63,754 nucleotides of DNA from an uncultured Gammaproteobacteria bacterium (lineage in GTDB: Bacteria > Patescibacteriota > Microgenomatia > UBA1406 > HO2-37-13b): the NCBI GenBank assembly GCA_964476245.1, contig CAYYYW010000005.1:1-63754 (forward strand), read 5' to 3'. The notes under the pieces are model-generated. The model did not search any database and had not been told where the DNA came from. It saw only the letters and a list, made by a program, of their open reading frames with translations. The position numbers and the translations under genes were made by a program. Shown here piece after piece: positions 2,979-24,989 of this stretch (position 1 is its first letter; each line of letters opens with the position of its first letter).

Positions 2979-3356
2979 GTCATCCTGAACGAAGTGAAGG
3001 ATCTAGCGAAGCGTAGATGATAAATCTTTAAACTTAGGATTTTCAATTTTGATAAGATTGATCTTTTTACATCTTTTCCAGCCTTTGATTTTCTTTTCAA
3101 CGATAATGGCTTCTTCGGGCGTGGTAAATTCTTCAAACCATACTAGTTTATATAAACGGTATTTATTAGTAAATGAATTATCAATTACTCCGTTTTTGTG
3201 TTCCTGGATTCTTCTTTGAAGATTGTTTGTTATTCCAGTATACAAAACAGTATTTTCGTAGTTGGCGATGATATAAACAAAATAACTTTTATTCATTAGT
3301 AATATTTTACGCTACGCTAGATTCTTCGTCGTCACTTCGTTCCTCCTCAGAATAAC
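2979..3356. mobile_element. GC-rich palindromic element carrying a GIY-YIG gene in its loop (occupied copy)
   Basis: Arms 2979-3015 and 3308-3356 are imperfect reverse complements. The same arms are joined by a 3-nt loop at 7655-7748. Confidence 0.45.
3003..3296 (-). CDS. GIY-YIG nuclease family protein (UPF0213/YhbQ-like)
   Basis: 97 aa; YFVYIIANYENTVLYTGITNNLQRRIQEH matches the GIY..YIG..R..E pattern. The stop codon lies inside the left palindrome arm. Confidence 0.85.
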   Translation of the reverse strand: MNKSYFVYIIANYENTVLYTGITNNLQRRIQEHKNGVIDNSFTNKYRLYKLVWFEEFTTPEEAIIVEKKIKGWKRCKKINLIKIENPKFKDLSSTLR

Positions 3357-22459: not shown

Positions 22460-23515
22460 ATGATTCTTAAAAAAATTACTATTACGAACTTCCGTAATTT
22501 TGATAATTTTGTTTTTTGTTTTAGTCCTTCTTTAACAATTATTATCGGAAAAAACTCTATTGGCAAAACCAATCTTCTTGAGGCAGTTTATTTTTCACTT
22601 AAGAGTCGTGGGTTTCGTGAACAAAAAGAGGAAGAATTAATAAATTACGATAAAATAAAAGCGGATGTTCAAATAGAGTTGGCGGAGCAAAAAGAAGAAA
22701 CAAAATTGAAAATAAACATTGAAAAGAATGATCCACCGGCTAGCGGGGTAGTCAAAAATTGCTTTGTTAATAAAATCAGGAAAAAAAGCTATCAGTATCT
22801 TTTGGAGAGTTTACCTGTGGTAATTTTTTCTCCTAATTTTGTCTATGTTATCGAGGGTGAACCGGGAGAAAGAAGGAGCTATTTTGATATTATTATTGCC
22901 ATTTTTGACATTGAGTACAAAAAAAGACTAGTTAATTACGAAAGTGCCTTGAGAAAAAGAAATAAAATATTGGAATTAGAAAAAAATATTGAAAAACTGA
23001 AAGAAGATTTGGAATTCTGGGATGATTATTTAATTGAGCAGGCAAACTACATAGCGATGAAAAGGCAAGAATTAATAGATTTTTTTAACAAACATAGACA
23101 AGTTGATAGTAAGAACTTCAGCATTGATTATGTAAAAAACGAGTTCTCCCGGGAGACTTTGGATAAAACATTTAAAAAACAATTAATTCTTAAAAAAACC
23201 CTAATTGGTCCCCAAAGAGACGACTTTATAATAAATATTAAGACTCCGAGCGGTTTTAAAAATGTTCACAAGTTCGGTTCAAGAAGCGAGCAGCGACTAG
23301 CTCTTTTTTGGTTGGTTTTAAATGAAATTAATCTTTATCAGGAAATACTAAAAAAACGTCCGCTTGTTCTTTTAGATGACGTTTTTTCCGAACTTGACAT
23401 AACCAATAAAGAACTTGTTTTAAAACTGATTAAAAAATATCAAACAGTAATTACTACAACGGAAGAAAATATTTTAAGCCTTGTTGATATGCCGCATACG
23501 ATAATTAATCTGTAA
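22460..23515 (+). CDS. recF: DNA replication and repair protein RecF
   Basis: Walker A GKNSIGKTN, GPQRDDF, signature GSRSEQRLA, Walker B LLDDVFSELD. Confidence 0.85.
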   Translation: MILKKITITNFRNFDNFVFCFSPSLTIIIGKNSIGKTNLLEAVYFSLKSRGFREQKEEELINYDKIKADVQIELAEQKEETKLKINIEKNDPPASGVVKNCFVNKIRKKSYQYLLESLPVVIFSPNFVYVIEGEPGERRSYFDIIIAIFDIEYKKRLVNYESALRKRNKILELEKNIEKLKEDLEFWDDYLIEQANYIAMKRQELIDFFNKHRQVDSKNFSIDYVKNEFSRETLDKTFKKQLILKKTLIGPQRDDFIINIKTPSGFKNVHKFGSRSEQRLALFWLVLNEINLYQEILKKRPLVLLDDVFSELDITNKELVLKLIKKYQTVITTTEENILSLVDMPHTIINL

Positions 23516-23545
23516 CTATTCCATGTCTTAACAATAAATTTAGGT

Positions 23546-23571
23546 GTATCAATGTATCGATACATTGATAC
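23546..23571. repeat. Perfect 26-nt palindrome
   Basis: gtatcaatgtatc|gatacattgatac, with no loop and no following T-run. Confidence 0.85.
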
Positions 23572-23619
23572 GTGTAATTCAGAAGTCTTTTGATTTAATT
23601 TGATAAAATATTAGAGACT

Positions 23620-23663
23620 GGAGGGTTGGCCGAGCGGTTTAAGGCGCTGGTTTCGAACCCGCC
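23620..23663 (+). pseudogene. tRNA-like fragment (acceptor 5' strand + D-arm + TTCGAA-containing segment)
   Basis: ggagggttggccgagcggtttaaggcgctggtttcgaacccgcc. It has no 3' acceptor strand. Confidence 0.4.
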
Positions 23664-23672
23664 AAAAATTTA

Positions 23673-23708
23673 GGAGAGATGCCGGAGTGGTTTAACGGTC
23701 AGGTTTCG
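23673..23708 (+). pseudogene. Truncated 5' half of tRNA-Ser(CGA)
   Basis: 34/36 identical to the first 36 nt of the intact tRNA at 24051. Broken inside the anticodon, resumes as aaaaccgt at 23751-23758, then ends. Confidence 0.6.
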
Positions 23709-23748
23709 TCACGGGATAAACCCGTGACGCCCCGAGTTAATCTCGGGG
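23707..23748 (+). other. Two back-to-back GC-rich stem-loops inserted in the tRNA fragment
   Basis: cgtcacggg-ataaa-cccgtgacg and ccccgag-ttaat-ctcgggg. Confidence 0.6.
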
Positions 23749-23776
23749 CGAAAACCGTAATTTGTATTTAAAGAAT

Positions 23777-24043
23777 ATGTTTTATTATGTATATATTTTA
23801 CTTTTAACTAATAAAGATATTTATACAGGTTATAGTAAAGATTTAAAGCAAAGAATTAAAAATCACGAACAAGGAAAAGTAGAATCAACAAGAAATTTTA
23901 AACCAGTGAAATTAATACATTACGAGGCTTATATAGATAAGAGCGATGCCAAAAGAAGAGAAAAATTTTTAAAATCAAGTGATGGTAAAGCATTGCTTAA
24001 AAGACAGTTGTCAACTCTACTAAGTAAGTTAGAGTTAAAATAA
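23777..24043 (+). CDS. GIY-YIG nuclease family protein (UPF0213/YhbQ-like)
   Basis: MFYYVYILLLTNKDIYTGYSKDLKQRIKNHEQG. ATG 23777 preferred to TTG 23762. Confidence 0.85.
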   Translation: MFYYVYILLLTNKDIYTGYSKDLKQRIKNHEQGKVESTRNFKPVKLIHYEAYIDKSDAKRREKFLKSSDGKALLKRQLSTLLSKLELK

Positions 24044-24050
24044 TTTGATT

Positions 24051-24137
24051 GGAGAGGTGCCGGAGTGGTTTAACGGTCAGGTCTCGAAAACCTTGAGAGT
24101 CGAAAGACTCACGCGAGTTCAAATCTCGCCCTCTCCG
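24051..24137 (+). tRNA. tRNA-Ser (anticodon CGA), class II with long variable arm
   Basis: Acceptor GGAGAGG/CCTCTCC, D-stem CCG/CGG, anticodon loop CTCGAAA, variable arm GAGTC-GAAA-GACTC, T-arm GCGAG-TTCAAAT-CTCGC, discriminator G. CCA is not encoded. Confidence 0.9.
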
Positions 24138-24185
24138 CATCCTGGAGAATTAGACTATAACGGTTTTGAAATCTTAATAACACTT

Positions 24186-24989
24186 ATGACCTCAATTAAT
24201 TTCAGAAATATCACAGAAGAAGTGGAATATAAAAGAAAAAGAATTACGCGTATTCTGGTTGATACAAAAGATAAGCTTACTCATTTAGGAACAGGTTTTT
24301 TCATTTCAAATACTGACATCTTAACAAATTCTCATATGGTTTTTGGCATGGGTTTAAAAAAATTAGAAACTTTTCCGGATTTCCACAAGACTAATCAAGA
24401 TGAGGATAAGATTATTAAGTACTACAAATTAATAACAACACGATCAGCTATTGAACTTGTCGATAAAACAAAAAAAGCGGTTTTTTTAAAACACATAGAC
24501 ACAAAATACGACATAGCAATTCTAAGATTAAGTAATGGACACAGCTATGATAATTATTTTGAACTGAATATCAAAAATGATATTAATTATGGAGATGATA
24601 TGCAATTTTGCGGTTATCAAACTGCTCCCTATATTGAGCCAATAAATTGGCCGTTTACATATAACACTGGAAAAATTTCAGCGTTTCCTAATACATATAT
24701 TGAGGGTGAAAGATATCCCCATCTTCAAATTAATAGTATTAACTTAGGTGGTAATAGCGGAGCTCCTTTATTTAAAAAATTAGAAAGAAAACCTATTGGC
24801 ATTATTAATGGAAATCAAAAGTGGGGAAATGATAATATGGCCTTCGTAAAAGACGATGGAAATATACAGAAAGATTCTTTCAGAGTTCCATTAAGTATAG
24901 CTTATGCTAGCTCTTTCAAAACATTGATTTCAAAATCGTCTATTTTTAAAACATACACGGACAAGTTGATAAAAAGTTATAAGGACTAA
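24186..24989 (+). CDS. Trypsin-like (S1/Trypsin_2) serine protease, no signal peptide
   Basis: Triad contexts TNSHMV, YDIAILRL, GGNSGAPLF. ATG 24186 chosen because the 24045 start runs through tRNA-Ser. Confidence 0.7.
   Translation: MTSINFRNITEEVEYKRKRITRILVDTKDKLTHLGTGFFISNTDILTNSHMVFGMGLKKLETFPDFHKTNQDEDKIIKYYKLITTRSAIELVDKTKKAVFLKHIDTKYDIAILRLSNGHSYDNYFELNIKNDINYGDDMQFCGYQTAPYIEPINWPFTYNTGKISAFPNTYIEGERYPHLQINSINLGGNSGAPLFKKLERKPIGIINGNQKWGNDNMAFVKDDGNIQKDSFRVPLSIAYASSFKTLISKSSIFKTYTDKLIKSYKD

Follow-up and report, generated by a model that had tools for sequence, protein, structure and literature searches.

A putative double-hairpin and GIY-YIG nuclease mini-cassette at a tRNA-Ser(CGA) gene of a candidate-phyla-radiation genome

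The question raised by this locus is how an intact tRNA-Ser(CGA) gene comes to be preceded, on the same strand, by the broken starts of two further tRNA genes, a pair of GC-rich hairpins and the gene of a small GIY-YIG nuclease, and why the breaks fall in the anticodon loop. The DNA analysed, referred to throughout as the window, is a stretch of 63,754 nucleotides, contig C5 of a 49-contig, 1.135-Mb AT-rich genome of the candidate-phyla-radiation (CPR) type. A preliminary description of the window had listed the broken tRNA starts, the hairpins and the nuclease gene, and had proposed site-specific invasion of the tRNA gene; on reading positions 23300-24500 every listed feature was found to be present. 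The answer put forward here, which we regard as somewhat on the probable side, is that the resident tRNA-Ser(CGA) locus was colonised, probably in two rounds, by a mini-cassette of two parts, a double-hairpin module of 40 nt and the gene of an 88-aa GIY-YIG nuclease with a single domain. The features on which the argument rests are as follows, in their order along the DNA.

23591-23619, plus strand: putative native tRNA promoter region, tttgataaaatattagagact, directly 5' of copy A, named for its likeness to relatives.
23620-23657, plus strand: copy A, the 38-nt 5' part of a class-II tRNA, with acceptor strand, D arm, anticodon stem and loop up to TTTCGAA.
23658-23672, plus strand: junction filler cccgccaaaaattta between copies A and B, with no tRNA match.
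23673-23708, plus strand: copy B, 36 nt from the 5' end of a resident-type tRNA-Ser(CGA), broken off after the CG of the anticodon.
23709-23750: double-hairpin module, hereafter M, of 40 nt plus the repeated CG (hairpin 1, 23709-23727; hairpin 2, 23728-23750).
23751-23758, plus strand: 8-nt continuation of copy B, aaaaccgt, which completes the anticodon loop and supplies the 3' strand of the stem.
23777-24043, plus strand: single-domain GIY-YIG nuclease gene, 88 aa (PF01541, 57 bits).
24051-24138, plus strand: copy C, the intact tRNA-Ser(CGA), found by ARAGORN and by Rfam (tRNA, 50.6 bits), with a fully paired acceptor stem.

The nuclease open reading frame (ORF) is intact. It is entered through an 18-nt AT-rich spacer and its stop codon lies 7 nt before copy C. 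PF01541 is the sole Pfam match in the 88-aa protein (57 bits against a cut-off of 22.6, residues 3-69); no second domain was found, the protein ending about 20 residues past the catalytic domain. Residues Y4, Y6, Y16, G18, R26, H30 and E62 are invariant in the homologue alignment A1, and the catalytic Tyr, Tyr, Arg and Glu that characterize the GIY-YIG superfamily are all in place. Among solved structures, the UPF0213 proteins 1zg2 (E 2.8e-7) and 1ywl come closest. In the protein tree the present gene groups with those of loci L125 and L130 (support 97/87), and a dN/dS of 0.10 between it and the L125 gene indicates that the nuclease is under strong purifying selection.

Copy C is presumably the functional tRNA of the locus. 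ARAGORN returned it as the single tRNA of the whole window, and an Rfam search of 23400-24300 gave no other match at threshold; with permissive settings over the same interval it was again the only tRNA, a 17-bit chimeric match across copy A and a hairpin being noise, and the candidate explanation that copies A and B are functional or intron-bearing tRNAs was rejected. Copy C is overall closest to the tRNA of the nearest relative, G001, and its anticodon arm, CAGGTCTCGAAAACCTTG, is common to most family members.

Copy B is identical to the start of copy C at 34 of 36 positions, differing at tRNA positions 7 and 33 (blast E 2e-12 over the first 32 nt); it is split at the anticodon and resumes after the hairpins for 8 nt, 7 of which agree with the aaaacctt of copy C. 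The 34/36 identity, the split and the resumption stood in the preliminary description and were borne out on reading the sequence. The same layout, at 99.9-100% identity, is present in 13 contigs from other samples that carry an identical nuclease, and one variant in this population has G for A at 23679, whereby copy B matches C at position 7 and the identity rises to 35/36. Copy B is therefore taken to be a recent copy of the 5' part of the resident tRNA that is now decaying. An empty or flipped variant of the locus was also sought in these 13 contigs of the same species and none was seen, the single-nucleotide polymorphism being the only difference.

Copy A had been described as a further truncated tRNA-Ser 5' half. 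It is indeed the 5' half of a genuine class-II tRNA, but it does not derive from C: its identity to B and C is no more than about two-thirds, and it matches the intact, syntenic tRNA-Ser(CGA) of relative G019 at 37 of 38 positions, up to TTTCGAA. A pattern search of 200 genomes of the order, allowing up to 3 mismatches, found A-type sequence in 11 other genomes from 10 genera, in every case as the start of an intact tRNA-Ser (anticodon CGA in 9, TGA in 2). Since the acceptor strand of copy A, GGAGGGT, is unable to pair with the 3' end of copy C, CCTCTCC, copy A is a piece of another functional lineage and not a worn copy of C, and on this evidence it belongs to a different tRNA-Ser(CGA) lineage. 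The earlier view of A and B as repeats of one event on one tRNA is accordingly abandoned. The match of copy A stops after CGAA, 2 nt beyond the break of copy B, which comes after CG. The filler between the two begins GC-rich and passes into an AT spacer, resembling a junction of fragment, ccctgt and spacer at locus L051. A cassette that brings only a tRNA 5' half and relies on the resident 3' half was considered and rejected, since for the step from A to C the two strands of the acceptor stem would not be complementary; moves between different tRNAs would also be left unexplained by it.

With RecF, the product of the gene directly upstream, as an anchor, the locus was compared in 40 relatives, all from other genera, the closest having a RecF 55% identical to that of the present genome. 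In 17 of them recF is followed by a tRNA-Ser(CGA) on the same strand, and in none of the 17 does a GIY-YIG gene lie between the two. The gap from recF to the tRNA is only 15-63 nt in eight genomes of the family (L015, L016, L019, L021, L022, L026, L036 and L041); in the four loci of the g8 genus with an uninterrupted gap (L027, L028, L032 and L034) it is taken up by about 440-500 nt of unrelated, reading-frame-like sequence. In the present genome recF and the working tRNA lie 535 nt apart. At L040 a 17-nt 5' fragment lies about 165 nt upstream of the intact tRNA with no nuclease gene, and looks like a scar. The relatives show, as far as sequence comparison goes, an ancestral state of recF, short spacer and tRNA-Ser(CGA), and because their recF-tRNA-Ser(CGA) sites are empty, the nuclease gene and the tRNA fragments are a derived insertion. 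The idea of an insertion into the tRNA locus is in this respect upheld, the presence/absence polymorphism of the homing type being found between genera only and not within the species population. Copy A begins at exactly the position at which the relatives' tRNA starts, and tttgataaaatattagagact, immediately before it, resembles tttgatacaatatggatact, upstream of the tRNA-Ser(CGA) of G001, as well as its G019 counterpart. Region 23591-23619 may thus have served as the native promoter, and about 430 bp now separate this old promoter position from the working tRNA C; a scan of the locus for consensus promoters and terminators gave nothing above chance.

The counterpart of this exchange of lineages is found in genome G104. 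At L125 of that genome, and in the metagenome loci L136 and L137, an intact A-type tRNA-Ser(CGA) is preceded by a 67%-identical nuclease gene and a like hairpin module, and the L125 block sits between the two ends of a C-like tRNA, 5' GGAGAGGTGGCAGAGCGG...TTTCG and 3' AATCCCACCCTCTCCGC. On the left the join falls within the anticodon loop, at TCG^A; on the right the 3' fragment begins at AATCC of a T loop, directly after CG. L125 is, by this comparison, the reciprocal of the present locus, with the A-type tRNA intact and the C-type broken. In genome G183 (L130, L138) the L125-type block again adjoins recF.

The hairpins had been treated as an interruption of copy B. Two hairpins are present there, tCACGGGataaaCCCGTGa and cgCCCCGAGttaatCTCGGGGcg, although they lie at 23709-23750 rather than at 23707-23748, and together they make up the 42-nt insert, which reads ttCG, then TCACGGGATAAACCCGTGA CG CCCCGAGTTAATCTCGGGG, then CGaaaa. 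More than a mere interruption, they form a module of 40 nt that is conserved and comes with a 2-nt repeat of the target: of the anticodon TCGA, the CG stands on both sides, as CG[M]CG, in the manner of the target-site duplication of a transposon or MITE. Folded as single-stranded DNA, copy B and M give a pair of hairpins enclosed by a helix (-24.9 kcal/mol, z -5.2) in which the anticodon-stem and loop bases of copy B are paired with its 8-nt continuation. Of 31 distinct cases in the family, 20 have an insert whose last 2 nt are those of the target, where chance would give about 2-3, a count that is indicative only, as the cases are not phylogenetically independent and several of the non-matches stem from automatic parsing. 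T loops and the anticodon loops of Ser-CGA or Arg-TCG have CG as the repeated dinucleotide, the anticodon loops of Leu-CAA (C13, L196, L163) have CA, L181 has CT, L201 has TG, and D loops have GG. Since hairpins of a single family end in ...GTGG-CG where the target is CG and in ...GTGG-CA where it is CA (L163), this dinucleotide is derived from the target. A related observation from L196, L181 and contig C13 is that the complement of the target dinucleotide stands between the hairpins (CA..TG..CA, CT..AG..CT), and at CG sites CG..CG..CG is found around and between them; the cases are few. Each stem would be extended by pairing with target bases in this arrangement.

The module is also found in either orientation. 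M agrees with the reverse complement of the modules of L139, L145 and L125 at 37, 37 and 35 of 40 positions, against 27-29 in direct comparison, and with the direct form of the L146 module at 34 of 40. Opposite orientation was seen in four of the five related modules compared, the orientation of the tRNA fragment and ORF remaining constant while the module flips, and the tree requires at least 2 flips. Compensatory drift was considered in place of inversion and rejected, since about 8 stem changes would be needed to relate L145 directly and only 1-3 as the reverse complement. Between L125 and L130 the module plus aaaact is identical at 49 of 49 positions, with ORFs of 86% DNA identity (dS 0.73, dN/dS 0.086); the module is, to judge from these figures, far better conserved than the synonymous sites of the nuclease gene and under strong constraint. 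Module type co-varies with nuclease clade, and in the type-L loci inspected (defined below) the module lies 6-90 nt from the nuclease start codon. In the present genome, M and both its hairpins are single-copy, amid about 245 GC-rich hairpin clusters in an AT-rich background; the families of these include GTCCCGACGTTACGTCGGGAC, TCCCGCTNAGCGGGA, CCTGCCTGCCGGCAGGCAGG, TCCGCCAGCTGGCGGA and GCCACGTCAAACGTGGC, and a 7-bp stem seed has 260 matches in the genome versus 2 in a shuffled genome.

The association with tRNA genes extends well beyond the window. The genome holds 12 small GIY-YIG ORFs, mutually 30-45% identical, seven of which lie within about 160 nt of a tRNA (six) or a tmRNA (one); with an eighth situated after a tRNA-like 5' fragment, this association is beyond chance. 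Five of the genes immediately precede a same-strand tRNA (Lys-TTT, Leu-CAA, Ser-CGA, Pro-GGG and Pro-TGG) and one is downstream of tRNA-Gln. Three of the sites need separate description.

C2:68017-68768: GIY-YIG gene about 160 nt after the tmRNA, with GC-rich hairpins between the two and after the ORF.
C28:11320-11664: tRNA-Ser-like 5' fragment, GC-rich hairpins and GIY-YIG ORF, running off the contig end.
C3:28231-28310: 3' pseudo-copy of tRNA-Lys, downstream of the intact tRNA-Lys(TTT) that has a GIY-YIG gene just upstream.

The gene on C2 suggests that the nuclease family also makes use of the tRNA-like 3' end of tmRNA. Since no tRNA-Ser(GGA) was found in the assembly, the tRNA missing from the C28 locus probably lies just past the contig break. 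In the pseudo-copy on C3 the anticodon arm is replaced by a GTCCCGA hairpin and the T loop carries another insert. On C13, three nested tRNA-Leu(CAA) 5' halves with three different acceptor strands stand ahead of the gene, and a different type of hairpin interrupts the fragments on C14 and C16, in the D loop and the anticodon loop.

From genome and metagenome collections, 162 homologous loci were gathered, and a tRNA on the same strand lies beside the gene in 95 of them. In the layout termed type L (61 of 162) the tRNA follows the stop codon by 0-95 nt on the same strand, and many different tRNAs are involved; elsewhere a same-strand tRNA abuts the start codon (9/162) or lies 26-170 nt upstream (25/162). 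Fragments that could be aligned end at about tRNA positions 17-23, 34-41 or 55-58 (67-71 in long tRNAs), that is, in the D, anticodon and T loops. That breaks recur in the anticodon loop, as first proposed, is borne out, and many tRNA genes share the layout. In all ten loci read by eye (the present locus, C13, C14, C16, L044, L045, L046, L049, L051 and L055), 5-9 more bases of tRNA follow on the ORF side of the hairpins, and L049 and L055 are mirror images in which the intact tRNA comes first and a hairpin-bearing 3' fragment stands after the gene. The two members of a sister pair starred on the protein tree are found beside different tRNAs (such as Gln/Leu, Asp/Ser and Thr/Arg), and the three layouts need at least 13 changes on that tree. 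The nuclease is 60-69% identical across candidate-phyla classes and RecF just 35-55% within the order, which argues for horizontal spread. The cassette family would, from these comparisons, be widespread and live on tRNA genes. L153 and L165, which seemed near-identical by the tree, share just 73.5% DNA identity and were not counted as a sign of recent transfer.

Two of the collected loci carry repeats of their own. At L153:1136-1600 (Ga0190315_1013248) a unit of ggttcg, double hairpin, aatcctgcccgggcaa and cataaa occurs in at least 2 tandem copies after an intact tRNA-Gln(TTG) with an upstream cassette, a third copy beginning at the end of the stretch; these units are repeated, hairpin-split 3' ends of the tRNA. 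At L051:1372-1792 a 64-nt direct repeat brackets the cassette beside a tRNA-Ser(CGA). This repeat runs from the last 21 nt of the GIY-YIG ORF through a 37-nt piece of tRNA into the initial 6-7 nt of hairpin 1, and looks like over one unit length of a tandem or circular form.

The colonisation of the locus by this hairpin and nuclease cassette could have proceeded as follows. The nuclease would recognise its own hairpins, as Ssn nucleases do, and breaks would be made beside the hairpins or in TCGA-type loops of tRNA genes, as by SegB (both systems are compared with the cassette below); the predicted nuclease may make these breaks itself. That the genes move because their own enzyme cuts tRNA genes is made somewhat likelier by the 2-nt repeat, the flipped module and the SegB motif, but is still less likely than not. 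Rejoining or recombinational repair of 2-nt-staggered breaks would then yield insertion, partial tandem duplication or replacement of one tRNA allele by another, and the module could flip at the self-complementary CG. Selection would remove products that lack a working tRNA, and only those retaining one intact tRNA would survive. The nuclease gene may be expressed by read-through from the tRNA promoter, which is plausible because copy A sits at the ancestral start site. We infer from the whole that the cassette would be selfish DNA rather than the carrier of a host function. A further-reaching and doubtful version holds that the nuclease and the 40-nt double hairpin are a transposition system with neither recombinase nor transposase. 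Cuts with a 2-nt stagger would in that case be made at dinucleotides of tRNA loops, TCGA above all, and at the module borders, and host ligation or repair would join compatible ends, so that the module with its neighbouring gene could insert, be precisely excised, flip at the palindromic CG, or swap whole tRNA alleles between lineages.

Several observations weigh against colonisation by a cassette moved by its own nuclease. An intact, TCGA-bearing tRNA always stands beside the gene, and a plain homing or cutting model would imply that the nuclease cuts its own locus, a difficulty that is escaped if cleavage needs the hairpin or single-stranded DNA. No adjacent tRNA was detected for 67 of the 162 homologues, the dinucleotide count draws on related cases, and current mobility at this locus is unsupported, given that neither an empty nor a flipped variant occurs in the 13 population contigs. 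The module matches no published SRM pattern (the hairpin pattern of the Ssn systems) and is single-copy. Lastly, the genome contains 2 large serine recombinases, 2 tyrosine recombinases and 4 matches of the Y1-transposase type, enzymes that could move the hairpins in trans, and a shared 2-bp core together with loss of polarity where that core is the palindrome CG is known behaviour of serine recombinase sites.

These last points lead to the alternative that a host serine recombinase or a Y1 (RAYT-like) transposase moves the hairpin modules in trans, as repeats of the REP/MITE kind, with the GIY-YIG gene as a passenger or hairpin-processing partner and the tRNA fragments as by-products of recombination. 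The abundance of hairpin clusters and of stem-seed matches over the shuffled genome, the Y1_Tnp and large serine recombinase genes, and the 2-bp core that loses polarity at CG would all be in keeping with it. No recombinase lies within 2 kb of the locus, however, the present module type does not recur in the genome, and in the family the module type follows the nuclease clade and keeps its short distance from the nuclease start codon, so that we consider this alternative unlikely, if deserving of weight. The strong purifying selection on both protein and module, and the layout that is invariant across the 13 contigs, might instead point to a domesticated host gene, for instance one exerting an Ssn-like control over incoming or replicating single-stranded DNA and placed in tRNA operons for strong expression, in which case the fragments and hairpins would be old scars and regulatory or recognition sites, mobility being over. 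SsnA does have a host-level role, in transformation (PMC11893778). Domestication nevertheless accords poorly with the patchy distribution and the empty sites in relatives, with sister proteins at different tRNAs and the many changes of layout on the tree, with a nuclease identity across classes that exceeds RecF identity within the order, and with nested fragments derived from different tRNA lineages; it is judged quite improbable.

A purely accidental origin, in which a tRNA was duplicated in tandem and decayed while hairpins and a small gene arrived independently, can appeal to the fact that tRNA genes do duplicate and that this genome is full of hairpins. It is hardly credible in view of the same ordered layout at 61 type-L loci with many different tRNAs, of breaks confined to loops, of a copy A that is 37/38 identical to a functional foreign lineage and not a decayed C, and of a module conserved at 49 of 49 positions at a dS of 0.73. 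More improbable still, to the point of being scarcely conceivable, is a split or intron-containing tRNA, in which copy B and downstream sequence would be spliced into a working molecule. The insert is in the anticodon loop, where tRNA introns lie, but copy B has no 3' half of its own, with just 8 nt after the insert where a group I or bulge-helix-bulge intron would require the remainder of the tRNA, copy C is complete, and no Rfam intron family was matched. Copy B is moreover decaying, the A at its position 7 breaking an acceptor pair and being polymorphic.

The surroundings of the locus add the following features.

24186-24989: trypsin-like serine protease (PF13365, E 7.6e-13), directly 3' of the tRNA.
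3057-3284, minus strand: second GIY-YIG gene of the window, of another subfamily, within an element at 2979-3356 that has inverted GC-rich arms on both sides.

The second GIY-YIG gene had been offered as a parallel to the present one, a comparison that is not supported as it stood: its subfamily is a different, Ssn-like one, and its arms, gaacgaagtga.../...tcacttcgttc, stand inverted on both sides in an Ssn-like arrangement, as at C1:57510. Between recF and copy A, at 23546-23571, lies a perfect 26-nt palindrome, GTATCAATGTATCGATACATTGATAC, the centre of which is TCGA; at least 12 further copies with 1-5 mismatches and the core TGTATCGATACA are spread over other contigs, and it looks like a putative binding site of a dimeric regulator.

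If the proposal is true, the cassette would be a very small autonomous genetic parasite (a gene of about 300 bp and a 40-nt hairpin) in some of the smallest known bacteria, one that lives inside essential tRNA genes without causing the death of the host. It would account for nested tRNA fragments and mis-annotated pseudo-tRNAs in candidate-phyla genomes and would point to horizontal replacement of tRNA alleles. The family would also constitute a set of tiny hairpin-guided nucleases of differing specificities, of possible relevance to single-stranded DNA tools, as with the Ssn enzymes. The recombinase-free version, if true, would amount to mobility in the manner of restriction and ligation, with the cell's most conserved genes as its targets. 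Concrete, testable predictions on cut geometry follow from the 2-nt target repeat and from the flipped module.

Four kinds of known system invite comparison. The integrative elements that target tRNA genes share with the present locus the tRNA landing site, the partial copy at one end and the preservation of an intact tRNA, and their crossovers are often in the anticodon or T loop. Here, in contrast, an integrase is lacking, the inserted DNA measures only about 380 bp, it is mostly the 5' piece that is displaced, and a hairpin module stands at the break. An integrase-type island was rejected as an explanation, there being no recombinase nearby: the neighbours are recF and the trypsin-like protease, and the recombinases are on other contigs. 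The REP/BIME-RAYT and IS200/IS605 systems resemble the cassette in that small GC-rich hairpins are recognised as DNA structure and the enzyme gene is flanked by its own hairpins. They differ in their HUH transposase, in place of which a hydrolytic GIY-YIG enzyme is found here, and in the 2-nt target repeat and tRNA-loop targets of the present family; neither a transposase domain nor terminal inverted repeats were found at the locus, the module being two separate hairpins and not terminal repeats around a cargo.

SegB is a free-standing GIY-YIG homing endonuclease of the T4/T6 tRNA gene cluster (PMC2330249; PMC13096335). Its cut sites lie within tRNA genes, at the motif RAWTSGAAC, which resembles a T loop and contains TCGAA, and it drives tandem amplification of tRNA and segB with truncated ends (PMC13096335); it leaves 2-nt 3' overhangs (PMC2330249). 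The likeness lies in a GIY-YIG nuclease gene situated among tRNA genes. Unlike the present protein, which has no C-terminal DNA-binding domain, the phage protein is more than twice as long and includes a DNA-binding part; it is accompanied neither by a hairpin module nor by nested dead tRNA halves, and the host here is a cellular CPR genome.

The Ssn nucleases are represented by SsnA of Neisseria meningitidis, a 94-aa single-domain GIY-YIG protein that binds its hairpin only as single-stranded DNA (Chenal et al. 2025, PMC11893778), cuts a few nucleotides from the hairpin, in the variable flank, and needs Y6, Y17 and E64 for this; tRNA is not mentioned in that paper (PMC11893778). Full-text literature searches likewise returned no description of GIY-YIG/hairpin cassettes embedded in bacterial tRNA genes. 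The present locus is not placed in the Ssn/SRM group: the SRM pattern HGTCWY..RNCYNB, searched as a regular expression, has 10 matches in the genome, none of them within 300 nt of any of the 12 GIY-YIG genes, and neither a match to that pattern nor dispersed repeats on both sides were found at this locus. Its hairpins are one-sided (5' only), paired, single-copy and inside the loop of a broken tRNA copy, and the solved structures closest to its protein are those of UPF0213 proteins rather than of a demonstrated Ssn member. In other respects the two correspond closely. Both are single-domain GIY-YIG proteins of about 90 aa with catalytic Tyr, Tyr and Glu at matching positions, the residues equivalent to Y6, Y17 and E64 of SsnA being invariant in alignment A1; both are encoded beside GC-rich hairpins of 20-50 nt, with protein clade and hairpin type varying together, and a cut a few nucleotides off the hairpin, as made by SsnA, fits the 5-9 nt of tRNA that follow the module here. 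The cassette is in these ways akin both to known selfish GIY-YIG nuclease elements and to known nuclease-hairpin pairs.

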